From: Acaryochloris marina S15
Lineage (GTDB): Bacteria > Cyanobacteriota > Cyanobacteriia > Thermosynechococcales > Thermosynechococcaceae
Direction of reading: 5' to 3'
Length of the DNA stretch: 32,000 bases
NCBI RefSeq assembly: GCF_018336915.1
Contig: NZ_CP064924.1
Span: 270,001-302,000 of the forward strand
The translations under genes were made by a program, and so were the position numbers. The notes below the pieces were generated by a model that worked only from the letters and a program-made list of their open reading frames with translations, had not been told where the DNA came from and made no database searches. Positions 2,956 to 26,690 of this stretch are shown here, one piece after another. Positions within the stretch are counted from its first letter, which is position 1. The number at the start of each line of letters is the position of its first letter.

Positions 2956-3801
2956 GTGGTGCTGTATTGGTACTGCTCTAGAGACCAATCAAAGAGATTC
3001 GGGGGGGCTGTTTTGCATAGGAAAACTAGAGGAATTTTCGTTAGGCCCATTCAATGGATGTGGGTTCAGCGATGGCCTTTGCTCATCATCATTGCTCCAG
3101 TTGTTGCAGGATTGACTTTTAATTTTATTGATGACTATTTGGCTCCAGAAAGAGCTATACATCCGACTGACAAGTTCTTACAAGAAAAGCAAATAGCTCA
3201 AGTCAAAAAAGATGTTCTTCAAATTACATCCCAAATTCTTGTAGGAATCACGGTACTATCTGGTGCTTACTTCACCTGGCAGCGGCTTGAGGTCAGCCGT
3301 GAGGATCAGATTACAGATCGCTACACCAAGGCTATCGATCAGCTTGGGAGCGAACATCTCGAAGTTCGTTTAGGTGGTATATATGCACTTGAGAGACTAG
3401 CCAAGGATTCTCCAAAGGATCAAGAGACTGTTATGGAGGTATTGACTGCCTTTGTTCGTGAAAATGCTTCATCTCAAATAACTATGCAAGCTAGCAGAGA
3501 TGAAAGTTCTGAGAAGGATACTGAAATTTCAGCTAATGAAGAGGATGTTAATGCATCTGGCAAGACAACTCCTAAAACAGATATCCAAACAATCTTAACT
3601 GTAATAGGAAGGCGTGAATGGGAAGTTTCAGGAAGAATAGATTTATCTGGGGCTAACTTGAGTGTACATTCCAGAACTATTTGTCCGTTTTCCAGAATTA
3701 GTGTCATAAAACTAATCCTTGAGCATTTCCTAGGACAGCATACTGATATTGTGCTGGAAGGCTGCGGTTCTGCGATCTTCGGTGAATACTGGCTGGGGTA
3801 G
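2956..3801 (+). pseudogene. 5' fragment of a membrane-anchored pentapeptide-repeat protein, interrupted at 3662/3663 by an inserted element
   Basis: TM segment (WPLLIIIAPVVAGLTF), then a module (ITDRYTKAIDQLGSEHLEVRLGGIYALERLAKDSPKDQETVMEVLTAFVRE ... DIQTILTVIGRR) collinear with the intact paralog at 12732-13832. Homology stops right after DLSGANLS. The last 46 codons are read from the inserted element. The true start may be ATG 3058 rather than GTG 2956. Confidence 0.8.
3663..3706 (+). repeat. Left terminal inverted repeat of the inserted element
   Basis: TGTACATTCCAGAACTATTTGTCCGTTTTCCAGAATTAGTGTCA. Its partner at 5565-5608, reverse-complemented, reads TGTACATTCCAGAATTATTTGACGCTGCTCCAGAATTAGTGTCA. 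Confidence 0.85.
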
Positions 3802-3883
3802 GGCTGTAGATCAGGTTTGGGATTGGCTCAACGCCAAAATAATCTGTGATAATTTAGCGTTGGTAGAGTTGCCATACCCCTTC

Positions 3884-5362
3884 CTATGAAGATGAAGGAT
3901 TTTTGGCTTTGGGAAGTCCTAGTTTTTGGCGAAACGGATCTGAATAGGTGGCTATCTGCCAGTTCAAAGCTGCTTTTACTTGTGCTGGTGTGATTTCTAG
4001 CACCCCTTTGAGATCGGCCCCTTTGAGATCGGCCCCTTTGAGATCGGCCCCTTTGAGATTGGCCCCTTCGAGATCGGCCCCTTTGAGATTGGCCCCTTCG
4101 AGATTGGCCCTGTAGAGCTTGGCCCCTTCGAGATTGGCCCTGTAGAGCTTGGCCTCTTCGAGATTGGCCCCTTGGAGATCGGCCCCTTTGAGCTTGGCCC
4201 CTTCGAGATTGGCCCTGTAGAGCTTGGCCTCTTCGAGATTGGCCCCTTGGAGATCGGCCCCTTTGAGCTTGGCCCCTTCGAGATCGGCCCCTTTGAGATT
4301 GGCCCCTTCGAGATTGGCCCTGTAGAGCTTGGCCTCTTCGAGATTGGCCCCTTGGAGATTGGCCACTTGGAGATTGGCCCCGTAGAGATAGGCCCCTTTG
4401 AGATTGGCCCCTTCGAGATTGGCCCTGTAGAGCTTGGCCTCTTCGAGATAGGCCCCTTTGAGATTGGCCCCTTTGAGATTGGCCCCGTAGAGCTTGGCCC
4501 CTTTGAGATTGGCCCCTTTGAGATTGGCCCTGTAGAGATTGGCCTCTTCGAGATTGGCCCCTTTGAGATAGGCCCCTTTGAGATTGGCCCCTTGGAGATT
4601 GGCCCCTTTGAGATTGGCCCCGTAGAGCTTGGCCTCTTCGAGATTGGCCCCGTAGAGATTGGCCCCGTAGAGATTGGCTTTGGATAACTCGGAACTGCTG
4701 AGGTTCAGCTCAAGTCTGCTAATGATATGCGCTTCTATCAAAAAACGCATAACACTACCTTTTCTTACTGAGTCATCTTCAAATCTCCGCAGGATAGATA
4801 ATGTCCTGGCTCGAATAACATCCAATGAAGAATCTAATAGCTCTTGCTCTTCCCGTATTCCATCGGGCAGTTGTTGTGATTCTCCTTCGCCTGAACTCTT
4901 GGTGTCACGGACCTTTGCAGAAATAGCCAGCAAATTCTTGTCAACCAAGAGTACTGATAGTCTGTCAAAGTATCCTTGAAGAATTTCTTCCTTTGCTTCC
5001 TCAGAAGCCAGCTCTCGCTGCTCTCTTGCTGCTGCTTCAGCTTGCTTTAGCTGTATTTGCTGAAATAACACCCCAAGAATTGCTAATGTCAGTGGCACTC
5101 CCAGAAGGCTCATCCAATCCCAAAATGTCTTTCCATCGTCAAATGTGGTTGTTCTAGTTGTCTTTACAGGCTTGCCCAACTTATCTGTTTGGTCAGATTG
5201 AACCGTTTCAGTTGTAACAGACTTCCCTTTCTCAATCCCCCAGCCACCGGGCCATAGCGTTGATCTTAGGCTCCCAAACAGAGACAAAAATACAATGATG
5301 AGTAATGCCCCAAGGATGTTATTCCTTTGTTTGGGGTTGAGTATTACTCTAGGAAACTTCAT
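3884..5362 (-). CDS. Membrane-anchored pentapeptide-repeat protein; cargo of the inserted element
   Basis: 492-aa ORF with two hydrophobic segments (ILGALLIIVFLSLFG; LLGVPLTLAILGVLF) and a coiled charged linker. About 46 consecutive A(N/D/K/Y)Lxx pentapeptides follow. The C-terminal tail LEITPAQVKAALNWQIATYSDPFRQKLGL is shared with the two paralogs in the window. Confidence 0.9.
   Translation of the reverse strand: MKFPRVILNPKQRNNILGALLIIVFLSLFGSLRSTLWPGGWGIEKGKSVTTETVQSDQTDKLGKPVKTTRTTTFDDGKTFWDWMSLLGVPLTLAILGVLFQQIQLKQAEAAAREQRELASEEAKEEILQGYFDRLSVLLVDKNLLAISAKVRDTKSSGEGESQQLPDGIREEQELLDSSLDVIRARTLSILRRFEDDSVRKGSVMRFLIEAHIISRLELNLSSSELSKANLYGANLYGANLEEAKLYGANLKGANLQGANLKGAYLKGANLEEANLYRANLKGANLKGAKLYGANLKGANLKGAYLEEAKLYRANLEGANLKGAYLYGANLQVANLQGANLEEAKLYRANLEGANLKGADLEGAKLKGADLQGANLEEAKLYRANLEGAKLKGADLQGANLEEAKLYRANLEGAKLYRANLEGANLKGADLEGANLKGADLKGADLKGADLKGVLEITPAQVKAALNWQIATYSDPFRQKLGLPKAKNPSSS
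4004..4682. repeat. 15-bp tandem DNA repeat array (about 46 units) encoding the pentapeptide repeats
   Basis: Near-identical 15-mers such as GAGATTGGCCCCTTC, GAGATCGGCCCCTTT and GAGCTTGGCCTCTTC recur without interruption. The periodicity is visible directly in the nucleotide sequence and leaves long antisense frames open. Confidence 0.9.
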
Positions 5363-12731: not shown

Positions 12732-13832
12732 TTGGATACCTCACAAAAAACTAGTCTAAACCCAACAAGATTACCCTTGCTGGTCTGTGGTAGCTTGCTC
12801 GTCGTCGCTCTACTGATAGGAGTTTGGAAATTACCCCAGCGTCAAGCATCCATGCTCAAACAGCGAATCGAGAGGGAAGAGAATACTGCGATTTCCCGCG
12901 AGAAACTATTTCAGCTTGAAAATACGACTCGTGAGAATTACTTGAAAATCATTCAATCATTTGGTGGACTTGGCTTTCTTTTGACAGGCTACTTTGCTTG
13001 GAGGAACTTGCAAATGGCTGAGAAAAATCGTGAACTTGCAGAGGGTAAGCAGGTAACAGAGCGCTTTAGCAAAGCTGTTGAACTTCTCTCCGATTCTAAG
13101 AAGCTTGAGGCCCGTATAGGTGGAATTTATATACTAGGCCGTATTGCTAATGATCATCCTAAAGATCAAATAACTGTGATGGAGGTACTAACAACCTTTA
13201 TTCGAGAAAAATCGTTAGGAAGTGACCTTGAATGCCAATGTGATGAAGAGTATAGTAACGCTGACATCCAATCTGCCCTTAATGTTATCGGCCGTCGTAA
13301 CGTTGAAAATGATGGAGTTAGAGGATTGTTTCTTTATGGTTCAAATCTAAGTGGTGTAGATCTTTGCGATACTAATTTCAGTAATACTGTCTTCAGTATG
13401 TGTGATCTCAGTAATGCCTATCTCCGTAAAACTAAGCTAATTAATACAAATTTTTCTGGTACTAAAATTAAAAAGACAAAGCTATGTGGAGCTTTTTTTA
13501 GTGGTGCTAACCTTAGCGGTGCTAACCTTAGCAGTACTGATCTAAGTGAATCTGATCTTACTGATGCTGACCTAAGTGAATCCGATCTAAGTGAATCTGA
13601 TCTTACTGATGCTGACCTAAGTGAATCCAATCTCACTGATGCTATTTTGAGTAGTGCCAACCTGAAGAGAGCTAACCTAAAAAGAGCAGATCTTCGTGAG
13701 ACTAAAGAAATAACTCCTAATCAGATCAAACAAGCAAGTAATTGGGAGCAAGCTCACTACAGCGACGATTTCAAAATTCAACTAGGACTATCAACCACCT
13801 CTGAAGAGTCAGCAGAAAAGCCCGAAGAATAG
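12732..13832 (+). CDS. Membrane-anchored pentapeptide-repeat protein; intact paralog of the interrupted gene
   Basis: 366-aa ORF with a TTG start. It has TM segments, then VTERFSKAVELLSDSKKLEARIGGIYILGRIANDHPKDQITVMEVLTTFIRE. Pentapeptide repeats follow (ANLSG, TDLSE, SDLTD, ADLSE and others), then the tail KEITPNQIKQASNWEQAHYSDDFKIQLGL. Confidence 0.85.
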   Translation: MDTSQKTSLNPTRLPLLVCGSLLVVALLIGVWKLPQRQASMLKQRIEREENTAISREKLFQLENTTRENYLKIIQSFGGLGFLLTGYFAWRNLQMAEKNRELAEGKQVTERFSKAVELLSDSKKLEARIGGIYILGRIANDHPKDQITVMEVLTTFIREKSLGSDLECQCDEEYSNADIQSALNVIGRRNVENDGVRGLFLYGSNLSGVDLCDTNFSNTVFSMCDLSNAYLRKTKLINTNFSGTKIKKTKLCGAFFSGANLSGANLSSTDLSESDLTDADLSESDLSESDLTDADLSESNLTDAILSSANLKRANLKRADLRETKEITPNQIKQASNWEQAHYSDDFKIQLGLSTTSEESAEKPEE

Positions 13833-15294: not shown

Positions 15295-18200
15295 ATGACG
15301 AGTCCGAGCCCAGAACAGCAAACCATTCTATTTCTTGCCAGCAACCCTGATGGATTGCGACAAGTCGGACGAGAATTACGCGACATTAAAAACGGGTTAC
15401 GCAGATCTGAGCATCGAGATCAGTTCACTCTATGTCCCTGCCTGGATGTACGTACTAAAGATATTCAACGGGCATTATTGGATGAAACGCCTCAGATAAT
15501 TCACTTCGCTGGCAGTGGCAAAGGAGAAGCAGGACTCGTCTTTGAAGATCAAGCAGGCAATCCCAAACTTGTCGCAAGTGCAGCCCTAGCAGGTCTATTT
15601 ACTCTGTTTGCTGAGGACATCCACTGCGTCATTCTGAATGGGTGTTATACCCAGGTGCAAGCTCAAGCCATCGCTCAACATATTGATTATGTAGTAGGCA
15701 TGCAGCAGGCCATCAGCCACGAAGCGGCCCTGGCCTTTGCCGTGGGTTTCTATGATGCCTTGGGTGCAGGCCGAGACATTGAATTTGCCTTTAAGTTGGG
15801 ATGCAGTGCCATTCAAATAGAAGGCTTACCCGAATCTCTCACCCCGGTGTTGGTCCAAAAATCTAGCCTTCAATCCGCACCCCTCCACCCCTTACCCGAA
15901 CAGCAGACTCATGAAAAACTCTGGAAAGTGCCAGAGTTACCCCCCCACTTTTTACCGCGTCCTCAGACCCTAAAAGCCCTAAGAGAGAAGGTCCTTACGG
16001 ATCTAGCCCAGCCTGTCGTCATGACCGGGCAACGCGTCGGTGTTCAGGGTATGGGAGGCATTGGCAAGTCGGTGTTGGCCACAGCCCTAGCTCGTGACCC
16101 TCAAGTTCAATCGGCATTCCCTGACGGTATTTATTGGCTAACCGTGGGGATAGAACCCAACCTACTGGCTCAGCAAATCGCTCTAGCAGCAGCCCTCTGT
16201 GGTGAACGCCAGGTATTTGAAGATATCAATGAAGGGAAAAACCGCCTCCAAACCCTATGGCAAGGACGCCAAAGTCTATTGATTCTAGATGATGTCTGGT
16301 GCATCGCGGATGCTGACGTCTTCAATGTCCTGGGACATCAAAGTACCTTGGTAGTGACGACCCGTGACTCAGAATTAATCACAGGATTAGGGGCCACTGA
16401 CTTTTCCCTTTCGGTACTCCATGAGGATCAGGCGCTGGAGTTATTAGCCGCCTGGGTGGGCGTCCCCATCTCAGATCTACCCTCCCAAGCCCAGGAAGTA
16501 GCAAGAGAATGTGGCAACTTGCCCTTAGCCCTGGCCCAATGTGGTGCAATGGTGCGAGATTTAACCCCTTGGCCCCATGTTCTCAGTGCCTTACAAGATT
16601 CAGATCTTGAATTTATCCAAAAACAGTTTAGTCATTATTCCTACCCCGATGTCTTCAAAGCCCTGCATGTCAGTGCAACGGTCTTAGCAGAAACCAACCC
16701 CATCGCTGCCGAACGCTATCAAGAACTGGCAGTGTTTCCAGCCGATGAATTGATTCCTGAAGCAGTCATTGTTCGCCTATGGCAATATACCGGAGTATTA
16801 AAGGAGCGAGATGCGGGCAAAATCCTAACCACCTTATCGAGTAAAGCCATGCTGCGGCTAGAGGGGGACTATCCCCAGCGGCAAGTCAGCCTCCATGACT
16901 TACAGCAGGATTATTTACAAGCCCAGCAAGCCGACCAGAAGGCATTGCATCAGCAACTTCTGGAGGCTTATCACCAGGGCTGTCCAGAGGGATGGCATTG
17001 TGGACCGAAGGACGGGTATTTCTTTGAGCATTTGGCCCATCACCTCCAGCAGGCAGAACGCACCGATGAGTTACGGCAATTACTCTGGGACTATCGTTGG
17101 ATTCAACGCAAATTGGGAGTCACTGATATCAATGCCCTGCTATTGGACTATGAAACCTTACCCAAGGACCAAGACCTCAACAGTGTCCACAGTGGGTTAC
17201 GGTTATCTAGCCATGTATTAAATCAGCATCCTGAGCAGCTTCCCAGTCAGCTCTTTGGGCGTTTGATGAGTCAAGATTCACCCCATGTGACCGCATTGAC
17301 TCAATCTTTAGCTCAGGGACCGGGAGAATGCTGGATACGGTGTCTATTCCCCCATCTCAACCAAGCGGGGGGAGCATTAGTGCGCACCCTCACCGGACAT
17401 ACTTCCACTGTCTATGGCGTGAGCATCAGCCCCGATGGCCAAACCGTAGTCTCCGCGTCTTGGGACCAGACCCTGAAGGTGTGGGACCTGGAGACGGGCC
17501 AGGAGCAGCGCACCCTCACCGGACATACTAGCCTTGTCAATGGCGTGAGCATCAGCCCCGATGGCCAAACCGTAGTCTCCGCGTCTTGGGACAAGACCCT
17601 GAAGGTATGGGACCTGGCGACGGGCCAGGAGCAGCGCACCCTCACCGGACATATTGCCTCTGTCAATGGCGTGAGCATCAGCCCCGATGGCCAAACCGTA
17701 ATCTCCGCATCTAGTGACCATACCCTGAAGGTGTGGGATCTGGAGACGGGCCAGGAACAGCGCACCCTCACCGGACATACTGACTATGTCGAGGGCGTGA
17801 GCATCAGCCCCGATGGCCAAACCGTAGTCTCCGCGTCTAGGGACCAGACCCTGAAGGTGTGGGACCTGGAGACGGGCCAGGAGCAGCGCACCCTCACCGG
17901 ACATACTGACCCTGTCTATGGCGTCAGCATCAGCTCCGATGGCCAAACCGTAGTCTCCGCGTCTGGTGACCAGACCCTGAAGGTGTGGGACCTGGCGACG
18001 GGCCAGGAGCAGCGCACCCTCACCGGACATACTGCCTCTGTCGAGGGCGTGAGCATCAGCTCCGATGGCCAAACCGTAGTCTCCGCGTCTGGTGACCATA
18101 CCCTGAAGGTGTGGGACCTGGAGACGGGCCAGGAGCAGCGCACCCTCACCGGACATACTGCCTCTGTCGAGGGCGTGAGCATCAGCTCCGATGGCCAAAC

Positions 18201-19293
18201 CGTGGTCTCCGCGTCTGATGACCATACCCTGAAGGTGTGGGACCTGGAGACGGGCCAGGAGCAGCGCACCCTCACCGGACATACTGCCTCTGTCGAGGGC
18301 GTGAGCATCAGCTCCGATGGCCAAACCGTAGTCTCCGCGTCTGGTGACCATACCCTGAAGGTGTGGGACCTGGAGACGGGCCAGGAGCAGCGCACCCTCA
18401 CCGGACATACTTCCCTTGTCCATGGCGTGAGCATCAGCCCCGATGGCCAAACCGTAGTCTCCGCGTCTAAGGACCAGACCCTGAAGGTGTGGGACCTGGA
18501 GACGGGCCAGGAGCAGCGCACCCTCACCGGACATACTGCCTCTGTCACTGGCGTCAGCATCAGCCCCGATGGCCAAACCGTCGTCTCCGCGTCTTGGGAC
18601 AATACCCTGAAGGTGTGGGACCTGGAGACGGGCCAGGAGCAGCGCACCCTCACCGGACATACTGCCTATGTCACTGGCGTGAGCATCAGCCCCGATGGCC
18701 AAACCCTTGTCTCCACGTCTTTGGACAAGACCCTGAAGGTGTGGGACCTGGAGACGGGCCAGGAGCAGCGCACCCTCACCGGGCATACTGACCCTGTCAC
18801 TGGCGTGAGCATCAACCCCGATGGCCAAACCGTCGTCTCCGCGTCTTGGGACTGTACCCTGAAGGTGTGGGACCTGGAGACGGGCCAGGAGCAGCGCACC
18901 CTCACCGGACATACTTCCACTGTCACTGGCGTCAGCATCAGCCCCGATGGCCAAACCGTCGTCTCCGCGTCTTGGGACTGTACCCTGAAGGTGTGGGACC
19001 TGGAGACGGGCCAGGAGCAGCGCACCCTCACCGGACATACTGCCCCTGTCAATGGCGTGAGCATCAGCCCCGATGGCCAAACCCTTGTCTCCGCGTCTGA
19101 TGACCATACCCTGAAGGCATGGGACCTGCTGACCGGCATGGAAGTGATGAGCTTCACGGGAGAAGGTGCATTTCAATGTTGTGAGATTGCCCTAGATGGT
19201 CGCACCGTCATTGCTGGAGATGCTGGGGGACAGCTTTACTTTCTGCGGCTAGAAGGCCCCAGCTTTTCAGACGACGGGGAGGTTATCTCATGA
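15295..19293 (+). CDS. Apaf-1/NLR-like STAND NTPase: N-terminal caspase/CHAT-like domain, NB-ARC, then 14 near-identical WD40 repeats and 1 degenerate one
   Basis: 1332 aa.
- N-terminal domain (about 190 aa) has a caspase-like strand/helix pattern with IIHFAGSG ... VILNGCYT.
- NB-ARC motifs: P-loop GMGGIGKS, Walker B LLILDDVW, VVTTRD, a GLPL-type GNLPLAL, and an MHD-type LHD (VSLHDLQ).
- C-terminus: 14 x 42-aa units LTGHTxxVxGVSISPDGQTVVSASxDxTLKVWDLETGQEQRT plus a degenerate 15th blade. Confidence 0.9.
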   Translation: MTSPSPEQQTILFLASNPDGLRQVGRELRDIKNGLRRSEHRDQFTLCPCLDVRTKDIQRALLDETPQIIHFAGSGKGEAGLVFEDQAGNPKLVASAALAGLFTLFAEDIHCVILNGCYTQVQAQAIAQHIDYVVGMQQAISHEAALAFAVGFYDALGAGRDIEFAFKLGCSAIQIEGLPESLTPVLVQKSSLQSAPLHPLPEQQTHEKLWKVPELPPHFLPRPQTLKALREKVLTDLAQPVVMTGQRVGVQGMGGIGKSVLATALARDPQVQSAFPDGIYWLTVGIEPNLLAQQIALAAALCGERQVFEDINEGKNRLQTLWQGRQSLLILDDVWCIADADVFNVLGHQSTLVVTTRDSELITGLGATDFSLSVLHEDQALELLAAWVGVPISDLPSQAQEVARECGNLPLALAQCGAMVRDLTPWPHVLSALQDSDLEFIQKQFSHYSYPDVFKALHVSATVLAETNPIAAERYQELAVFPADELIPEAVIVRLWQYTGVLKERDAGKILTTLSSKAMLRLEGDYPQRQVSLHDLQQDYLQAQQADQKALHQQLLEAYHQGCPEGWHCGPKDGYFFEHLAHHLQQAERTDELRQLLWDYRWIQRKLGVTDINALLLDYETLPKDQDLNSVHSGLRLSSHVLNQHPEQLPSQLFGRLMSQDSPHVTALTQSLAQGPGECWIRCLFPHLNQAGGALVRTLTGHTSTVYGVSISPDGQTVVSASWDQTLKVWDLETGQEQRTLTGHTSLVNGVSISPDGQTVVSASWDKTLKVWDLATGQEQRTLTGHIASVNGVSISPDGQTVISASSDHTLKVWDLETGQEQRTLTGHTDYVEGVSISPDGQTVVSASRDQTLKVWDLETGQEQRTLTGHTDPVYGVSISSDGQTVVSASGDQTLKVWDLATGQEQRTLTGHTASVEGVSISSDGQTVVSASGDHTLKVWDLETGQEQRTLTGHTASVEGVSISSDGQTVVSASDDHTLKVWDLETGQEQRTLTGHTASVEGVSISSDGQTVVSASGDHTLKVWDLETGQEQRTLTGHTSLVHGVSISPDGQTVVSASKDQTLKVWDLETGQEQRTLTGHTASVTGVSISPDGQTVVSASWDNTLKVWDLETGQEQRTLTGHTAYVTGVSISPDGQTLVSTSLDKTLKVWDLETGQEQRTLTGHTDPVTGVSINPDGQTVVSASWDCTLKVWDLETGQEQRTLTGHTSTVTGVSISPDGQTVVSASWDCTLKVWDLETGQEQRTLTGHTAPVNGVSISPDGQTLVSASDDHTLKAWDLLTGMEVMSFTGEGAFQCCEIALDGRTVIAGDAGGQLYFLRLEGPSFSDDGEVIS
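17389..19152 (+). repeat. 14 tandem 126-bp repeats, in frame, encoding WD40 blades
   Basis: Direct inspection shows an exact 126-bp period starting at CTCACCGGACATAC. Units 6-8 are nearly identical at the DNA level. Differences between units fall in a few codons. Confidence 0.95.
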
Positions 19294-19429
19294 CTTAAAC
19301 CGTTCTAATATCCCTTCAATTCCTGCCTCAACGTTTGGGGTGTTCTCTCACAACCGAAGGCTATCGACGTCGCAATTCAATCATTGAGTGTTCCACTATC
19401 TTCTGCCCGAATTTATCCGCCCTACCCTC

Positions 19430-20527
19430 ATGACTGCCCAAACCATTCTCTTTCTCGCTGCGAATCCCAAAGATACTAAGACTCTTCGATTGGATCAGGA
19501 GTTAAGGGATATTGGTGAGGGTTTACAGCAGGCTCAACGTCGAGATGAGTTTAAGCTTGAACAGCGCCTGGCGGTTCGCCCCCATGATATTCAGCGGGCC
19601 ATGCTAGATCTGAATCCCCAGATCGTTCATTTCTCAGGCCATGGGAATGGGGATGAGGGCTTGGCCTTTGAGGATGTCAGTGGTAATACCCAGTTGGTCA
19701 GTGGTGAGGCGATTGCTGACCTGTTTAGCCTGTTTGCCGATCAACTGCGCTGCGTAGTCCTCAATGGCTGCTATACCGAGGTGCAAGCAAAGGCCATCTC
19801 GGAACATATTCCCTATGTTATCGGTATGAAACGGGCGATTGGGGATAAAGCGGCGATCTCCTTTGCCGTGGGATTCTATGATGCCCTGGGCTCTGGTCGA
19901 GATGTGGAGTTTGCCTTTAAGTTGGGCTGTGCCGCTATCCGCATGGAAGGCATTGAAGAACATCTCACCCCCGTTCTGATTAAAAAGCCCATTACTGAGG
20001 AAACTAAGGATCAGGATCAACCCAATGCTCAAACTCCTCCAACACCCGCGCCTTCTCCCATGACTCCAGACGCCGATGGACCCTTAGAGGTCTTTATTTC
20101 CTATTCCCATAAAGACGATGATTTACGAGAAGAGTTAGACATCCATCTTTCCAATCTGAAACGACAGGGGAAAATTGCTGCTTGGCATGATCGGGCGATT
20201 GAAGCAGGGGAAGAATGGGAAGCTCAAATCAAAGGCCATCTGGAGTCCGCTCAAATCATTCTGCTACTGGTCAGCCCACCCTTTATGGCCTCTGACTATT
20301 GCTACGACATTGAGATGCAACGAGCGATAGACCGCCATAACGAAGGCACAGCCCGAGTCATCCCTATTATTCTGCGTCCCTGTGACTGGAAAGGGTCACC
20401 CTTCAGTAAGCTGAAGATACTCCCTAAAGATGCCAAGCCCGTGACGAAATGGGCTGATCGCGATGAGGCATTCTTGGATGTCGTCAAAGGAATACGGAGG
20501 GCGGTAGAGTCCCTGACAAAAAAGTAG
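19430..20527 (+). CDS. Caspase/CHAT-like domain fused to a TIR domain (putative effector)
   Basis: The N-terminal domain is about 60% identical (100/163 positions, hand alignment) to the N-terminus of 15295-19293, but has an intact HFSGHG ... VLNGCYT dyad pattern. A Pro/Thr linker follows, then a TIR signature: VFISYSHKDD...GKIAAWHDRAIEAGEEW...IILLLVSPPFMASDYCYDIEMQRA, with a conserved Glu candidate. The preferred start is ATG 19430 (MTAQTILFLAANP, parallel to the MTSPSPEQQTILFLASNP N-terminus of 15295-19293) rather than the ORF-track GTG 19388. Confidence 0.85.
   Translation: MTAQTILFLAANPKDTKTLRLDQELRDIGEGLQQAQRRDEFKLEQRLAVRPHDIQRAMLDLNPQIVHFSGHGNGDEGLAFEDVSGNTQLVSGEAIADLFSLFADQLRCVVLNGCYTEVQAKAISEHIPYVIGMKRAIGDKAAISFAVGFYDALGSGRDVEFAFKLGCAAIRMEGIEEHLTPVLIKKPITEETKDQDQPNAQTPPTPAPSPMTPDADGPLEVFISYSHKDDDLREELDIHLSNLKRQGKIAAWHDRAIEAGEEWEAQIKGHLESAQIILLLVSPPFMASDYCYDIEMQRAIDRHNEGTARVIPIILRPCDWKGSPFSKLKILPKDAKPVTKWADRDEAFLDVVKGIRRAVESLTKK
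20518..20524 (+). promoter_or_regulatory. Candidate -1 ribosomal frameshift or slippage site: A AAA AAG followed immediately by a 0-frame TAG
   Basis: The last two sense codons of the TIR ORF are AAA AAG preceded by A. This is the same heptamer as the E. coli dnaX -1 site. The -1 frame is open from 20467 and runs without a stop into the NB-ARC-TPR ORF. GGAGG lies about 17-21 nt upstream. No convincing downstream hairpin was found by eye. Confidence 0.35.
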
Positions 20528-20676
20528 ACCACTCTTCGTCAGGACTCAGTCCACCAACGGAGAGTCATCAGGGCCAGGGACCAGAAGCCTCGTCATCTTC
20601 TCAGGCAAGTCCCCCTCATAACCTCCCTCGCAGCGGTGTCGTTGAATTTGTCGGTCGTGAACAAACGCTGCAGGAC

Positions 20677-23196
20677 TTGCACCAGCTCCTCCAAAAGAAC
20701 AATCCAGTAGCCCTTACTGCATTAGCAGGCATGGGTGGGATCGGAAAGACTGAACTTGCCCTGCAATATGCCATCTCCCAGCTCGATCAGGGTCAGTACC
20801 CTGGAGGACTTTGCTGGCTGCGAGTGAAAGGCCAGGCTCTAGCTGCCCAAATTATCGAATTTGCCCGGACCAAGTTGGCACTGGCCCTTCCGGATGGACT
20901 CAATGAAGATCAACAGGTGAGTTATATCTGGGGGCAATGGCCCACCGGAAAGGTGCTGATTATTTTTGATGATGTAAAGGACCTTGAGACCATCGAACCG
21001 TACTTACCGCCGTCAGACCCACGGTATAAAGTACTGATTACAACCCGACAGGATTTAGGTCTATCCGATCATTCCCTTTCCATTAAAGAACTGAGCGATA
21101 CCAGTGCCTTATCCCTGCTGAGAACCCTAGTTGGAGCAGACCGAATTGATGCTCAGCTCGACGATGCTCAAGCCTTATGTGGATGGGTGGGTAAATTGCC
21201 CTTAGGACTAGAGTTAGTGGGACGGTATCTAGCCAGAAAGCCAGACTGGTCCCTCCAAAAGCTGATCAAGCGACTTGAATCCAAGCGATTACAAGCCAAA
21301 GCCCTGACGACTCCAGCATCAGGAATGACCGCACAGTTTGGGGTCGCTGCTGCACTGGAATTAAGCTGGGTAGAGCTGAATGAGGCAGAGCAGGAACTGG
21401 CTTGCTTTTTGGGGATGTTTGCGGTTGCTCCTATTCCTTGGACTTTGGTTGAAGGATGTCTATCCGAACAGGATAAGGATGACTTAGAAGACATCAGAGA
21501 TGAAGGTTTGAAAGATAGGAACCTACTCAAACGAATAGAAGAGAGTACCTACCAACTCCATCAAATTGTTCAGGAGTTCTTTCGGATTAAGTTGAATGAG
21601 GATTCCGAACAGGGGAAATCCCTCAAAGCCGCTTATTGCAGAGGAATGGTTGCAGTTGCTCAGGGTATTAATCAGAATCCAACGATTGATGTGATTGCAG
21701 GGATGAGTGCCAGCATTCCCCATCTAGAGGAACTGATCCGACAGTGGATTGACCACCTCGGTGATGATGAATTGATGTGGCCCTATGTCGGTATTGGTCG
21801 ATTTTATGAAGGGCAAGGGAACTATGCATTGGCTTTACCTTGGTATCAAAAATGCCTAGAACAGACTCAACAAAGATTGGGCAATGAACACACCGATGTC
21901 GCAACTAGCCTCAATAACCTGGCAGGACTCTACAAAAACCAAGGACGATATGAGGAAGCAGAACCCCTCTATACACAAGCCCTACAGATGAGACAGAAGC
22001 CATTGGGCAATGAACACCCCGATGTCGCAACTAGCCTCAATAACCTGGCATTACTCTACGACAGCCAAGGACGGTATGAGGAGGCAGAACCCCTCTATAC
22101 ACAAGCCCTACAGATGACACAGAAGCTCTTGGGCAATGAACACCCCGATGTCGCTCTTAGCCTCAATAACCTGGCAGGACTCTACGACAACCAAGGACGG
22201 TATGAGGAGGCAGAACCCCTCTATACACAAGCCCTACAGATGAAAAAGAAGCTCTTGGGCAATGAACACCCCTCTGTCGCAAGTAGCCTCAATAACCTGG
22301 CAGGACTCTACAAAAACCAAGGACGGTATGAGGAGGCAGAACCCCTCTATACACAAGCCCTACAGATGACACAGAAGCTCTTGGGCAATGAACACCCCTC
22401 TGTCGCAAGTAGCCTCAATAACCTGGCAGCACTCTACGAGAACCAAGGACGGTATGAGGAGGCAGAACCCCTCTATACACAAGCCCTACAGATGAGACAG
22501 AAGCTCTTGGGCAATGAACACCCCTATGTCGCGACTAGCCTCAATAACCTGGCAGGACTCTACAAAAACCAAGGACGGTATGAGGAGGCAGAACCCCTCT
22601 ATACACAAGCCCTACAGATGACACAGAAGCTCTTGGGCAATGAACACCCCTCTGTCGCAAGTAGCCTCAATAACCTGGCAGCACTCTACGACAACCAAGG
22701 ACGGTATGAGGAGGCAGAACCCCTCTATACACAAGCCCTACAGATGAGACAGAAGCTATTGGGCAATGAACACCCCGATGTCGCAACTAGCCTCAATAAC
22801 CTGGCATTACTCTACGACAACCAAGGACGGTATGAGGAGGCAGAACCCCTCTATACACAAGCCCTGCAGATGAAAAAGAAGCTCTTGGGCAATGAACACC
22901 CCTCTGTCGCAAGTAGCCTCAATAACCTGGCAGGACTCTACAAAAACCAAGGACGGTATGAGGAGGCAGAACCCCTCTATACACAAGCCCTACAGATGAG
23001 ACAGAAGCTCTTGGGCAATGAACACCCCTCTGTCGCGACTAGCCTCAATAACCTGGCATTACTCTACAAAAACCAAGGACGGTATAAGGAGGCCAAATCT
23101 AATTTAAAGCAAGCACTAAAGATAGTAGAGGTCGTCTTGGGTCCAGAGCATCCTTCTACTCGGACCATGCGAAACAACTTAGAGTCCATCCCCTAG
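20677..23196 (+). CDS. NB-ARC STAND NTPase with a C-terminal TPR array (kinesin-light-chain-type 42-aa units). The coding frame is open upstream to 20467 with no start codon.
   Basis: P-loop GMGGIGKTELA, Walker B VLIIFDDV, ITTRQ, a GLPL-type GKLPLGLE, and an MHD-position LHQ. About 10 units follow of the form LLGNEHPxVAxSLNNLAxLYxNQGRYEEAEPLYTQALQMxxK. The ORF-track TTG start (20677) falls inside the conserved pre-P-loop helix ...GVVEFVGREQTLQDL|HQLLQ. The real N-terminus therefore lies upstream. Confidence 0.85.
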   Translation: MHQLLQKNNPVALTALAGMGGIGKTELALQYAISQLDQGQYPGGLCWLRVKGQALAAQIIEFARTKLALALPDGLNEDQQVSYIWGQWPTGKVLIIFDDVKDLETIEPYLPPSDPRYKVLITTRQDLGLSDHSLSIKELSDTSALSLLRTLVGADRIDAQLDDAQALCGWVGKLPLGLELVGRYLARKPDWSLQKLIKRLESKRLQAKALTTPASGMTAQFGVAAALELSWVELNEAEQELACFLGMFAVAPIPWTLVEGCLSEQDKDDLEDIRDEGLKDRNLLKRIEESTYQLHQIVQEFFRIKLNEDSEQGKSLKAAYCRGMVAVAQGINQNPTIDVIAGMSASIPHLEELIRQWIDHLGDDELMWPYVGIGRFYEGQGNYALALPWYQKCLEQTQQRLGNEHTDVATSLNNLAGLYKNQGRYEEAEPLYTQALQMRQKPLGNEHPDVATSLNNLALLYDSQGRYEEAEPLYTQALQMTQKLLGNEHPDVALSLNNLAGLYDNQGRYEEAEPLYTQALQMKKKLLGNEHPSVASSLNNLAGLYKNQGRYEEAEPLYTQALQMTQKLLGNEHPSVASSLNNLAALYENQGRYEEAEPLYTQALQMRQKLLGNEHPYVATSLNNLAGLYKNQGRYEEAEPLYTQALQMTQKLLGNEHPSVASSLNNLAALYDNQGRYEEAEPLYTQALQMRQKLLGNEHPDVATSLNNLALLYDNQGRYEEAEPLYTQALQMKKKLLGNEHPSVASSLNNLAGLYKNQGRYEEAEPLYTQALQMRQKLLGNEHPSVATSLNNLALLYKNQGRYKEAKSNLKQALKIVEVVLGPEHPSTRTMRNNLESIP
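21871..23130 (+). repeat. About 10 tandem 126-bp repeats, in frame, encoding TPR pairs
   Basis: Exact 126-bp periodicity with very high DNA identity between units. The last unit diverges in its second half. Confidence 0.9.
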
Positions 23197-23954: not shown

Positions 23955-26690
23955 ATGTGGCCTGACTCACTTCGACATTGGAGTAAGCGAGCACGGCGGT
24001 CAATTGATCCTCGTCAAAGCCTCAAAGCTCGCTTACTGTTGATCACGTTTGGGATGGTTCTACTGCTCTCGACCGTTTTGAGTCTAGTGGTGGGCAACAT
24101 CAGCACGGAACAACTAGAAGCGGTCACTAATCAATCTTTAGAAGATCTGGCCTTTCAAGTGGCCGACAAGCTTGATCGCGGTATGTTTGAGCGCTATCGG
24201 GATTTGCAAATCATTGCCAGCCTTGACGTGCTGCGTCAACCGAGTGTCTCAATAACCACTGAGCGGAATCTGTTGGAACAGCTTCAGAAGTCCTACCCTA
24301 ACTATTCTTGGCTGGGGGTAGCAGACCCTGCAGGTATAGTGAAAGCCAGCACTGGAGGACTGCTGGAGGGAGAAAGTGTTGCCCAGCGTCCGTGGTTTCA
24401 GGCAGGACGGAAGCAGCCCTTTGTTGGTAGCATGCATGAGGCATTGATGCTAGAAAAACGGCCCTCTAATCCCACTGATGAATCATCCCGATTTGTGGAC
24501 TTGTCAACCCCTCTATTTGATGATCAGGGACAACTTCAGGGTGTTCTCGCTGTCCATTTAAGCTGGTCGTGGGCAAAGGAGACTACCCATCGGCTCATCA
24601 ATCCAGAAGCCAAACACAATCATGCTGAAATCTTGGTTCTCTGCCAAGACGGGCATGTATTGCTGGGACCAGCAGGTGTTCAGGGTGAAACATTACCGAT
24701 CACCATCCTTAAAGCCTCCAATACGAATCGGACAGGATATTTTATTGAGTCTTGGCCCAGTCAGGGGGAGTTTGTGACTGGCTGGGCCAAGACTAAGGGC
24801 TATCTCAGCTATCCTGGACTGGGCTGGATTGTGCTGGCCCGTCGATCGGTGACCCAAGCCTTCGCCCCAGCTCGGGTGCTACAGGCAAAGGTTTTGGGTT
24901 GGGGACTGGGTATCGGAACGCTGTTTGCATTGCTCAGTTGGTTGATTGCACGCCGCATCTCGTTCGTAACGATTAAACTCACCACTGCTGCTGATCGCAT
25001 TCGGCAAGGCAGCCCTGATGAAACCTTACCGACCGTTGAGGGACGAGATGAGTTGGCCCAGCTCTCGCGTTCCCTCCATCACATGGTCAATATGCTGCAA
25101 ATCCAACGGCAAAACCTACTGCTCACCAATCAACAGCTCCAAGATGAGCTACAACTCCGTGAGCAGGCCGAACATACAATTGGGGAGCAGGCTGCATTGC
25201 TGGACATTGCCACCGATGCAATTTTTGTACGGGATTTAGATAATCGCATTTTGTATTGGAATCAGGGGGCACAGCGCACCTATGGATGGTCAGCAGCAGA
25301 AGCCTGCGGCCAAAATGCAATCACCTTCCTCAATTTAACAAGTTCCCCCGAGCTAGACACCGCCGTACAAACTGTTCTTGAACAGGGCGAATGGCAAGGG
25401 GAGCTAGAAAAAGTGACCCAATCGAAACAAACAATCGTCGTTGATAGTCGCTGGTCGTTAGCCTGTAATGCAGAGGGTCAACCTGAATTCATCCTCACCG
25501 TTGATACGGACATTACTGAGCAAAAGCAGCTCGAGGTCCAGTTTCTGCGCGCCCAGCGACTAGAGAGCTTAGGCACCCTCGCCAGTGGCATCGCTCACGA
25601 TCTCAACAATATTTTCACCCCTATCATTGGTTCAGCGGGTCTCCTACCCATCACCCTAGACCCAGCAGACAGCAAGAGCCGCCGCTTGGTGCGGATGCTC
25701 AACGATAGCGCTCAACGCGGCAGCGAATTAGTCAAGCAAATTCTAGCTTTCGCACGGGGGGCTGAGGGGGAATTCATTACGCTCCAGGTCGGTCACCTAT
25801 TGGCCGAGATTCAACAGATCATCAGAAGCACGTTCCCAAAACACATTGAGCTGCAGGCCAATATTCCCACCCAGTCTCTGCCCACGGTGACCGCCGATGC
25901 AACCCAAGTCCATCAGATATTGATGAACCTTTGCGTGAATGCCCGTGATGCCATGCCTAACGGTGGCATTCTAAGTCTATCGGCCAAAGCAATAACAGTG
26001 GATGAACACTTTGCGGAGATACATATTGATGCAAAGACTGGGAAGTATGTCGCGATCACTGTTGCTGATACGGGTATGGGCATACCACTCGAGGTACAAG
26101 AGCGCATTTATGATCCCTTTTTCACGACCAAAGAGGTTGGCCAGGGTACAGGATTAGGGCTATCGACGGTGAGGGGCATTATCAAAGGTCATGGCGGATT
26201 TTTAGACCTTTATTCCGAGGTGGGTCGAGGAACAACCTTTACAGTGTTTATCCCCGCTGAACTCGATCATGAGATGGAGATACCTCAATATCCTGACTTA
26301 CAAGAGGGGCAGGGGCAGTTAATTTTAGTGGTGGATGACGAAGCGCTGATCCTGCAAATGACCAAGAGCACGTTAGAACTATTCAACTATCAAGTGGTCA
26401 CGGCTACGAATGGGAGAGATGCGATCGCTCAGTACAAGCAATATCACCCTGACCTTGTACTCATGGATATGATGATGCCGGAGCTAGGAGGGCAAGAAGC
26501 GATCTCAGCACTGAGAGACATCAATCCGCACCTCAAGATTGTTGCTACTAGCGGACTGATTACAGAGCAATTTTCTACTATCAGTGTTGATGCCTTTTTG
26601 CCTAAGCCTTATACTCTGCAAGAGTTACTTCAGACACTTGGGCAATTTCAGGAAAAGAACTCACATACTTTAGGCCATGAGATGCAATAG
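23955..26690 (+). CDS. Hybrid sensor histidine kinase: TM, extracytoplasmic sensor, TM, HAMP, PAS, HisKA, HATPase_c and receiver
   Basis: 911 aa.
- Two TM segments (LLLITFGMVLLLSTVLSLVVG; GLGIGTLFALLSWLIA) bracket a sensor domain of about 270 aa.
- HAMP-like linker.
- PAS (LLDIATDAIFVRDLDNRILYWNQGAQRTYGW).
- H-box SGIAHDLNNIFTPI, N-box LMNLCVNARDAM, G1 DTGMGI, G2 GTGLGLS.
- C-terminal receiver (LILVVDDE...DLVLMDMMMP...KIVATSG...LPKPY). Confidence 0.9.
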   Translation: MWPDSLRHWSKRARRSIDPRQSLKARLLLITFGMVLLLSTVLSLVVGNISTEQLEAVTNQSLEDLAFQVADKLDRGMFERYRDLQIIASLDVLRQPSVSITTERNLLEQLQKSYPNYSWLGVADPAGIVKASTGGLLEGESVAQRPWFQAGRKQPFVGSMHEALMLEKRPSNPTDESSRFVDLSTPLFDDQGQLQGVLAVHLSWSWAKETTHRLINPEAKHNHAEILVLCQDGHVLLGPAGVQGETLPITILKASNTNRTGYFIESWPSQGEFVTGWAKTKGYLSYPGLGWIVLARRSVTQAFAPARVLQAKVLGWGLGIGTLFALLSWLIARRISFVTIKLTTAADRIRQGSPDETLPTVEGRDELAQLSRSLHHMVNMLQIQRQNLLLTNQQLQDELQLREQAEHTIGEQAALLDIATDAIFVRDLDNRILYWNQGAQRTYGWSAAEACGQNAITFLNLTSSPELDTAVQTVLEQGEWQGELEKVTQSKQTIVVDSRWSLACNAEGQPEFILTVDTDITEQKQLEVQFLRAQRLESLGTLASGIAHDLNNIFTPIIGSAGLLPITLDPADSKSRRLVRMLNDSAQRGSELVKQILAFARGAEGEFITLQVGHLLAEIQQIIRSTFPKHIELQANIPTQSLPTVTADATQVHQILMNLCVNARDAMPNGGILSLSAKAITVDEHFAEIHIDAKTGKYVAITVADTGMGIPLEVQERIYDPFFTTKEVGQGTGLGLSTVRGIIKGHGGFLDLYSEVGRGTTFTVFIPAELDHEMEIPQYPDLQEGQGQLILVVDDEALILQMTKSTLELFNYQVVTATNGRDAIAQYKQYHPDLVLMDMMMPELGGQEAISALRDINPHLKIVATSGLITEQFSTISVDAFLPKPYTLQELLQTLGQFQEKNSHTLGHEMQ

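Follow-up and report, generated by a model that had tools for sequence, protein, structure and literature searches.

The window analyzed here, a 32,000-nucleotide (nt) stretch of Acaryochloris marina S15 (contig NZ_CP064924.1, positions 270,001 to 302,000 of the forward strand), carries two adjoining open reading frames (ORFs) that encode parts of an NLR-like system. The upstream frame (ORF1) encodes a CHAT-TIR effector module, and the downstream frame (ORF2), which lies in the -1 frame relative to ORF1, encodes an NB-ARC-TPR sensor. The two frames meet at the heptamer A_AAA_AAG, and this junction, as a candidate site of programmed -1 frameshifting, is the subject of the present analysis. The features that define it are as follows, with protein lengths in amino acids (aa).

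19430 to 20527, plus strand: ORF1, the CHAT-TIR effector module in frame 0, 365 aa from ATG 19430, with the C-terminus ...AVESLTKK followed by TAG
20496 to 20501, plus strand: GGAGGG, resembling a Shine-Dalgarno sequence and ending 16 nt 5′ of the heptamer (17 nt for GGAGG at 20496 to 20500)
20518 to 20524, plus strand: slippery heptamer A_AAA_AAG of the X_XXY_YYZ type in frame 0 of ORF1, the proposed -1 shift site
20525 to 20527, plus strand: frame-0 stop codon TAG, which abuts the heptamer and ends the short product
20524 to 20619, plus strand: first 32 codons of ORF2, a Ser/Pro-rich linker VDHSSSGLSPPTESHQGQGPEASSSSQASPPH that matches the linker of 28 to 32 aa in single-ORF homologs
20531 to 20565, plus strand: stem-loop predicted by RNAfold, the proposed stimulator, with a 9-bp stem ACUCUUCGU/ACGGAGAGU and an inner 4-bp stem GGAC/GUCC
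20620 to 20676, plus strand: conserved segment NLPRSGVVEFVGREQTLQD preceding the P-loop, coding, upstream of the first possible ORF2 start
20677 to 23196, plus strand: remainder of ORF2, an NB-ARC NTPase domain and a TPR_12 array (Pfam)

The domain assignments of both ORFs are well supported by profile matches. ORF1 matches the Pfam families CHAT (2.4e-09) and TIR_2 (2.6e-16), and in PADLOC it matches a ThsB1-like TIR model (6e-63) and the chat model (6e-27), both of which are domain-level matches only. A GTG at 19388 is an alternative start for this ORF. ORF2 matches NB-ARC (PF00931, 5.2e-15), including a GMGGIGKT P-loop, and TPR_12 (6e-164) in nine stretches that amount to about ten repeats. 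Read in the -1 frame, the linker is followed by the motif NLPRSGVVEFVGREQTLQDL and then by the P-loop. The CHAT and TIR domains would thus share a polypeptide with the NB-ARC-TPR sensor at this locus only if a frameshift occurs.

A reading made earlier from the sequence alone (the sequence-only reading) had described ORF1 as ending in CTG ACA AAA AAG TAG with a dnaX-type heptamer at 20518 to 20524, and this is what the DNA holds at 20513 to 20527, where the run of six adenines (A6) spans 20518 to 20523. Its account of the downstream frame also stands. The -1 frame runs uninterrupted from 20467 to its stop codon at 23194 to 23196 and translates through the P-loop as ...KKVDHSSSGLSPPTESHQGQGPEASSSSQASPPHNLPRSGVVEFVGREQTLQDLHQLLQKNN..., and from 20467 it holds no ATG, GTG, or TTG until TTG 20677. 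The only start codons in this frame that precede or fall within the P-loop region are TTG 20677 and ATG 20731, the latter inside GMGGIGKT itself. Counted from nucleotide 20524, ORF2 comprises 890 codons, so that the 365-aa short form would be accompanied by a trans-frame product of 365 + 890 = 1255 aa, the sizes given by the sequence-only reading. The predicted fusion would contain the junction peptide ...SLTKKVDHSSSGLSPPTESHQ (...AVESLTKKVDHSSSGLSPPTESHQGQGPEASSSSQASPPHNLPR). Among approximately 7000 codons in the long ORFs of the window, the junction is the only place where A_AAA_AAR occurs in frame, and no promoter-like or terminator-like site was found on the plus strand between ORF1 and ORF2.

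Two elements next to the heptamer are candidates for a stimulating role. By analogy with “shifty stops,” the TAG directly after the heptamer may favor slippage in the ribosomal P site while the A site awaits release factor, and so may act as an additional stimulator of the shift. The upstream GGAGGG is a possible, though uncertain, stimulator as well. This stretch is invariant in all six Acaryochloris copies described below and in a further homologous locus (L008; homologous loci and proteins carry L and P numbers throughout), yet it also encodes the conserved residues IRRA. Among relatives, GAGGA or GGAGG is present approximately 9 nt upstream of the heptamer in L014 and L018.

The sequence-only reading had found no convincing stimulatory hairpin. 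Structure prediction nevertheless places one at 20531 to 20565, beginning 6 nt 3′ of the heptamer, within the spacing of approximately 5 to 9 nt expected for dnaX/IS3-type sites, and it is enriched over background. Across the six Acaryochloris copies its pairs are retained with one U-G to C-G change (alifold energy of -15.8 kcal/mol), and its stem positions are 19% variable versus 44% across the rest of the linker. In other lineages with an A6G site, a hairpin is likewise predicted to start mostly 3 to 7 nt past the heptamer, and it is formed by unrelated stem sequences, for example CCCGUUCUCAGU/ACUGAGAACGGG in L009 and GGGUCAGCGA/UCGCUGACCC in L056; further hairpins are predicted in L008, L014, L015, L092, L093, and L094. 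When each junction was compared with 45-nt windows drawn from the surrounding coding sequence, the empirical p values were 0.025 for the window, 0.003 for L001, 0.009 for L009, 0.004 for L056, and 0.04 to 0.05 for L014, L015, and L016, with a Fisher combined p of 1e-5 to 2e-6. A cmscan search of 20300 to 20800 (E values up to 10) gave no match to Rfam frameshift-element families such as the dnaX element and returned only chance snoRNA matches on the opposite strand. Stem sequences and loop lengths diverge strongly between lineages, too much for reliable automatic alignment.

The arrangement recurs in five further Acaryochloris copies that are 87 to 93% identical to the window in DNA sequence. 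The six copies compared are those in the window, in the metagenome-assembled genome (MAG) IP29b_bin.148, on plasmids pREB7 and pREB8 of strain MBIC11017, and on the 'Moss Beach' plasmids pMB04 and pMB06. All share the gene order CHAT-NB-ARC-WD40, CHAT-TIR, NB-ARC-TPR, and all carry AAAAAAGTAG, that is, A6-G-TAG, with no insertion or deletion over 261 aligned columns. Pairwise Nei-Gojobori comparisons of the six copies gave ratios of nonsynonymous to synonymous substitution (dN/dS) of 0.14 to 0.24 for CHAT-TIR (dS 0.16 to 0.51) and of 0.11 to 0.23 for the first 115 codons of NB-ARC past the TTG (dS 0.09 to 0.35). Purifying selection has acted alike on ORF2 and ORF1 throughout the divergence of the frameshifted copies, which contradicts the recent inactivating mutation that the sequence-only reading had listed among its options. 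ORF2 is intact over 722 to 890 codons in four copies (890, 814, 722, and 722 aa in the window, L001, L005, and L006, respectively), and these length differences suggest expansion and contraction of the TPR sensor array. In the two remaining copies ORF2 is broken, after 168 codons on pMB06 (L003, 3419 to 3931) and after 587 codons on pMB04 (L004, 3419 to 5188), with CHAT-TIR and the slip site intact in both; individual copies therefore do decay.

Selection also identifies the frame in which the DNA between the junction and TTG 20677 is read. Over these 150 nt in the six copies, the -1 frame contains no stop codons and has the lowest ratio of nonsynonymous to synonymous differences (pN/pS of 0.47), as compared with 10 stops and 0.74 for frame 0 and 19 stops and 1.61 for the +1 frame.

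Distant homologs in which effector and sensor are encoded by a single ORF provide a second view of the same region, and the sequence-only reading had named this fused architecture as one to be sought among orthologs. It exists in P0001, P0003 (Leptolyngbya sp. BL-A-14), and P0004, which are CHAT-TIR-NB-ARC-TPR proteins of 1125 to 1132 aa with approximately 50% identity. In each, the TIR domain is followed by a linker of 28 to 32 aa, by NLPRSGV/NLPRSGVVEFVGR, and by the P-loop, a layout that agrees with the predicted trans-frame product. The segment NLPRSGVVEFVGR is identical in the fused P0001 and P0004, is near-identical in P0003, P0010, P0029, and L091, and sits upstream of TTG 20677. No slippery heptamer is found at the junction of the fused homologs, where the DNA reads ...ACC AGC AAG CGG ACT... 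or ...GCG CAA CCG GAT.... A Peptidase_C14 (caspase-like)-TIR gene (L090, 4162 to 5651, minus strand) adjoins the single-ORF homolog P0001 on the opposite strand. Within the Acaryochloris clade itself, a search of 5.8 billion proteins revealed no fused allele, and the best full-length match was approximately 50% identical. Some 85 of the best 120 matches in this collection were CHAT-TIR ORFs of 357 to 388 aa, with thousands more ranking lower.

Public annotation assigns varying starts to ORF2. The ORF is 100% identical to the NCBI entry “tetratricopeptide repeat protein” P0002, an 842-aa protein whose MQDLHQ start corresponds to CTG 20668. Other annotated Acaryochloris homologs begin elsewhere, at MHQLLQ (TTG 20677) in P0006 to P0008 and at MGGIGKT, an ATG within the P-loop, in P0015 and P0044. 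All of these starts cut off the conserved NLPRSGVVEFVGR segment. Because the annotated starts are both inconsistent and truncated, they show that annotation pipelines find no real N-terminus for ORF2.

A sensor paralog group that is 72% identical (P0037; L007, approximately 3650 to 4090, on A. marina MBIC10699 pREC3) was considered as a further start-less sensor and was rejected, as its reading frame includes an ATG of its own and, at the N-terminus, a domain of approximately 100 aa. This ATG (MNPKINKG...) overlaps the end of a 146-aa ORF, and the NCBI start at 4090 is apparently some 140 codons too far downstream.

To place the junction in a wider context, we collected loci from a metagenome scan with a CHAT-TIR alignment, together with four look-ups chosen solely by a KK C-terminus and by contig extent. 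Lineages were counted by eye from identity levels and are thus approximate, with Acaryochloris counted as one. In at least 15 cyanobacterial-type lineages, A_AAA_AAG or A_AAA_AAA stands in frame either right at the stop codon or one codon earlier, so that the heptamer and stop arrangement whose conservation the sequence-only reading had left to be established is indeed conserved. The stop directly adjoins the heptamer in most lineages and follows one codon later in L018, L021, L022, and L025. In 12 of the 15, the heptamer is followed by an ORF that either spans 235 codons or more or runs off the contig still open, always in the -1 frame and never in the +1 frame; the other three (L009, L091, and L093) have just 35 to 74 downstream codons. 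None of seven lineages lacking the heptamer has a -1 ORF, and the association (12 and 3 versus 0 and 7) is significant by Fisher's exact test from these counts (p of approximately 7e-4). Thermosynechococcaceae, Stenomitos, Elainellaceae, Leptolyngbya, Nostoc, and Calothrix are among the named relatives. The -1 ORFs cover at least seven sensor architectures, assigned as follows.

Window and L092: NB-ARC-TPR
L056: NB-ARC-APAF1-WD40
L020 and L094: AAA_16
L018: nSTAND1 / AAA_35
L014: CHASE2 (3e-55)
L021 and L022: VMAP-C
L016: TPR
L015: weak cyclase-like match

The codon preceding the heptamer varies among ACA, CCA, TCA, GCA, CTA, and GAA, which specify Thr, Pro, Ser, Ala, Leu, and Glu, and its third base is always A. 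Since the encoded amino acid changes while the third base stays the same, this adenine is under selection at the nucleotide level. In L008, AAG is replaced by AAA to give A_AAA_AAA, which is also a canonical heptamer, and the frames are still split. The site is, moreover, commoner at these stops than chance would give: of the 311 ORFs in the collected loci that reach 150 codons or more, 19 have A_AAA_AAR no more than five codons from the stop, and 17 of these 19 belong to the CHAT-TIR family. Around the junction, start codons of the -1 frame occupy no constant position from one lineage to the next, and among relatives linked through the junction we found no conserved separate start for the sensor, an arrangement that the sequence-only reading had named as speaking for an ordinary gene pair. 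More distant CHAT-X relatives (e.g., L064 and L084 to L087) are ordinary gene pairs with an ATGA overlap; the superfamily includes fused, coupled, and frameshifted layouts.

Some loci have the appearance of decayed sites. L011 (GCA AGG AAG TAG, with a linker remnant kept) and L012 (GCA AAG AAG TAA) have neither the heptamer nor a -1 ORF and look like former slip sites. A Nostoc-type subclade (L010, 4563 to 4590, with P0144, P0149, and P0159) ends early at ...AVNSL-TAA and carries a relic tcAAAAAAGTAGat approximately 10 nt past the stop, with KKVDYSS readable in another frame; it too looks like a decayed slip site. At L091 (1 to 806), the CHAT-TIR ORF is preceded by a CHAT-GUN4 gene and a GAF-like gene, a HicB/PIN pair lies nearby, and the NB-ARC ORF downstream of CHAT-TIR ends after 74 codons.

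Taken together, these comparisons indicate that the junction is probably a programmed -1 ribosomal frameshift site that yields both a free CHAT-TIR protein and a CHAT-TIR-NB-ARC-TPR fusion, which was the first option offered by the sequence-only reading and is the one the comparative data support. Under this model, ribosomes translating CHAT-TIR would arrive at A_AAA_AAG with TAG adjoining it and the stem-loop 6 nt further on. The majority would terminate and release the free 365-aa CHAT-TIR protein. A fraction would slip back one base at the lysine codons, such that AAA-AAG re-pairs as AAA-AAA, and would then read GTA GAC CAC... and go on for 890 codons. The shifted product would be a CHAT-TIR-linker-NB-ARC-TPR protein of 1255 aa and approximately 138 kDa (versus 40 kDa for free CHAT-TIR) with the same layout as the cyanobacterial single-ORF homologs.

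Three other routes to the same downstream frame were considered and rejected. Initiation at ATT 20470, which lies in the -1 frame, is contradicted by pREB7, where that codon is TTT. Termination followed by reinitiation at a nearby start is disfavored by the absence of any start within 150 nt and by the lack of positional conservation elsewhere. Readthrough of the stop codon would not reach the sensor, which is not in frame 0.

The most serious competitor to frameshifting is the view that ORF1 and ORF2 are two separate genes, with ORF2 starting at TTG 20677, CTG 20668, or ATG 20731 and the heptamer representing a mere conserved Lys-Lys C-terminus. NCBI annotates the ORFs in this manner (P0002, P0006 to P0008, P0015, and P0044), TTG 20677 is present in five of six Acaryochloris copies, and the CHAT-X loci with ATGA overlaps are truly pairs of coupled genes. 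We nonetheless consider it unlikely, given that the -1 frame is coding over the 51 codons that lead up to the TTG, as judged from stops, pN/pS, and a NLPRSGVVEFVGR segment common to distant homologs, that the annotated starts vary by copy and in one case fall inside the P-loop, at positions that are not conserved across lineages, that ORF2 lies in the -1 frame and abuts the heptamer without a spacer in 12 of 12 lineages, and that the base just ahead of the heptamer is under nucleotide-level constraint. Identical protein products could also arise if RNA polymerase added one A within the run, so that the edited mRNA encoded the same fusion. Transcriptional slippage of this kind is efficient at runs of at least nine bases, with a threshold of approximately eight to nine A or T residues, and is generally low at A6 or A7. 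Longer runs do occur in the family, namely A9 in L015 (1888 to 1899) and A10 in L021 and L022 (upstream of TAG 2395 and TAG 2332, respectively) and in L025 (2117 to 2126). No downstream hairpin was found at the A10 loci L021 and L025, and the A10 loci may use transcriptional instead of ribosomal slippage. There is precedent for both routes in one gene, as Thermus dnaX relies on transcriptional slippage and Escherichia coli dnaX on ribosomal frameshifting (PMC3711429). For the junction in the window, polymerase slippage seems quite unlikely: the run is no longer than A6 or A7 in the window and in most lineages, and the spacing of the hairpin at A6G loci fits a ribosomal stimulator and would be needless for a polymerase.

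The remaining explanations hold that no fusion is made from the present sequence, or that the split is not fixed. An old frameshift might have been spread by duplication and gene conversion, leaving a conserved but inactive split gene from which ORF2 is not made. The two copies with further breaks fit such a history, as do L009, L091, and L093, which keep the heptamer with few downstream codons. It is very unlikely, however, in view of the low dN/dS of ORF2 at dS values up to 0.35, its intact length in four copies, and the decay of the heptamer where ORF2 has been wholly lost (L011 and L012). In addition, because the same junction precedes long, intact, and unrelated -1 ORFs in 11 other lineages, one inherited mutation is insufficient to account for it. 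Phase variation, in which changes in A-tract length during replication switch a fused gene on and off, has in its favor that one added A would fuse the frames and that homopolymer switches are known in other bacteria. This option, also raised by the sequence-only reading, is highly improbable here, since the tract is A6 throughout the Acaryochloris copies and the search of 5.8 billion proteins gave no fused allele above approximately 50% identity, all 15 lineages are split, L008 has exchanged G for A with its frames still apart, and an A-tract is missing from the junction of the fused homologs. Finally, homopolymers are error-prone on some sequencing platforms, and the sequence-only reading had allowed that the real gene might be a single ORF misread in this genome. 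Such an error is scarcely credible when genomes, plasmids, MAGs, and metagenomes that were sequenced independently share the identical junction, comprising the six Acaryochloris copies and 14 other lineages.

Several observations weigh against programmed ribosomal frameshifting. The support for it is wholly comparative, and the occurrence of the shift on the ribosome, its efficiency, and its purpose are inferred. The retention of TTG 20677 in most copies makes some independent initiation of ORF2 conceivable. The Acaryochloris copies were counted as one lineage because plasmid paralogs may exchange sequence. Their hairpin has no double compensatory change, the window copy taken by itself gives a modest z-score against shuffled sequences (-1.5, p of 0.07), and L018 and L020 have no significant structure. 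A Shine-Dalgarno-like stretch is absent from several other slippery lineages, and the GGAGG of the window, at 17 nt, lies farther upstream than the optimum of approximately 10 to 14 nt for dnaX-type sites, a class in which the element is optional. Sites of this class are expected to have AAG decoded by a slip-prone tRNA-Lys(UUU) where tRNA-Lys(CUU) is lacking, and to judge from E. coli the latter would lower slippage on AAG; a tRNA scan detected no tRNA genes within the window. Five heptamer loci (L003, L004, L009, L091, and L093) have a broken or truncated downstream ORF, and therefore the site can persist without a functional ORF2.

The genes and repeats around the junction bear on what a programmed shift might achieve. 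Two further features are relevant.

15295 to 19293, plus strand: upstream partner gene encoding 1332 aa with CHAT-like, NB-ARC, APAF1_C, and WD40 domains (Pfam)
21877 to 23093, plus strand: array of 126-nt tandem repeats encoding the TPR sensor, 9.7 copies with 93% match

The upstream partner has a CHAT domain and no TIR domain, and between its N-terminal CHAT-like domain and the CHAT domain of ORF1 the identity is 60% (BLASTP, 109/183). As a guess at its purpose, the shift might set the ratio of free to sensor-tethered effector. Free CHAT-TIR could be recruited into an activated oligomer through homotypic CHAT or TIR contacts, and the neighboring CHAT-NB-ARC-WD40 sensor could likewise recruit it; recruitment into the oligomers of either sensor is possible because of the similarity between the two CHAT domains. 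More broadly, we lean slightly toward the view that this cyanobacterial NLR-like family uses a portable recoding cassette, consisting of CHAT-TIR, A_AAA_AAG, a stop codon, and a hairpin, which recombination has placed before at least seven unrelated architectures, and that the cassette sets the ratio of free to tethered effector at each locus. The free effector from one cassette may also serve neighboring sensors with the same CHAT domain. Other neighbors of the locus are a hybrid histidine kinase (dCache-HAMP-PAS-HisKA-HATPase-REC, 23955 to 26690) and a pentapeptide-repeat protein (12732 to 13832), neither of which has an evident connection to it.

If programmed frameshifting does occur at this junction, it would define a new and widely conserved family of recoded genes, and the public annotation of many cyanobacterial genomes, in which sensor halves are given arbitrary CTG, TTG, or in-P-loop starts or are flagged as broken, would be corrected. 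It would also provide a testable design principle for NLR-like systems, namely a fixed ratio of free to tethered TIR or caspase-like effector, which bears on how such effectors assemble and are amplified on STAND oligomers. Should the cassette reading be true as well, translational recoding would be a device for stoichiometry and wiring in prokaryotic innate immunity. To our knowledge, few programmed frameshifts have been described in bacterial cellular genes, among them dnaX, prfB, copA, csoS2, and cdd. The CHAT-TIR family is not mentioned in a survey of prokaryotic frameshifting (PMC3711429) or in a review (PMC5009743), and the text supplements of Antonov 2013 contain no Acaryochloris, TIR, TPR, NB-ARC, or CHAT. 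A search for the terms frameshift, recoding, and slippage found none of them in Kaur et al. 2020 (PMC7159879). No description of frameshifting in bacterial TIR/STAND systems was found in the limited literature searched, and an earlier one is possible.

The components of the locus are familiar from several known systems. The two-gene conflict systems of multicellular bacteria that pair effectors with STAND NTPases employ CHAT/caspase-like and TIR effectors and NB-ARC/STAND proteins with TPR or WD40 repeats, with VMAP-C and effector-associated domains in relatives, and in the published accounts (Kaur et al. 2020, PMC7159879; Kaur et al. 2021, PMC8195603) effector and NTPase are connected either through fusion or through adaptor domains. 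The Acaryochloris TIR domain strongly matches the PADLOC model for ThsB1 of Thoeris. Unlike Thoeris ThsB, it is joined to CHAT and, by way of the shift, would be joined to an NB-ARC-TPR sensor. The closest relatives of the predicted product are the single-ORF CHAT-TIR-NB-ARC-TPR and TIR-NB-ARC-TPR proteins (P0001, P0003, P0004, P0010, and P0030), which have the same domain order, linker length, and NLPRSGVVEFVGR segment and are approximately 50% identical over 98 to 99% of the query. In contrast to the Acaryochloris locus, these are encoded in one frame with no heptamer at the junction, and therefore only the tethered form is possible for them.

The recoding signal itself most resembles that of E. 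coli dnaX, which produces tau and gamma and has the same A_AAA_AAG, a stem-loop approximately 6 nt downstream, an upstream Shine-Dalgarno-like element, and two products with a common N-terminus (the dnaX signal is described in PMC3711429). The outcomes are reversed, in that the dnaX shift leads to the shorter product whereas the Acaryochloris shift would lead to the longer one, with the frame-0 stop adjoining the heptamer. The Shine-Dalgarno-like element is also, as the sequence-only reading had observed, farther upstream in Acaryochloris (17 nt from the heptamer versus approximately 10 nt in dnaX), and the proteins are unrelated. The logic proposed here is the same as that of IS3-family OrfA/OrfAB and the phage tail chaperones G/GT, where a short product ends near the slip site, a -1 fusion adds a C-terminal module, and how efficiently the signal works determines the product ratio. 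The heptamer A_AAA_AAG is common in IS3 elements. In place of a transposase or a virion protein, the Acaryochloris locus has a CHAT-TIR effector module followed by diverse sensor and NTPase domains, and we would file its junction as a recoding signal of the known dnaX/IS3 type in a new biological setting.

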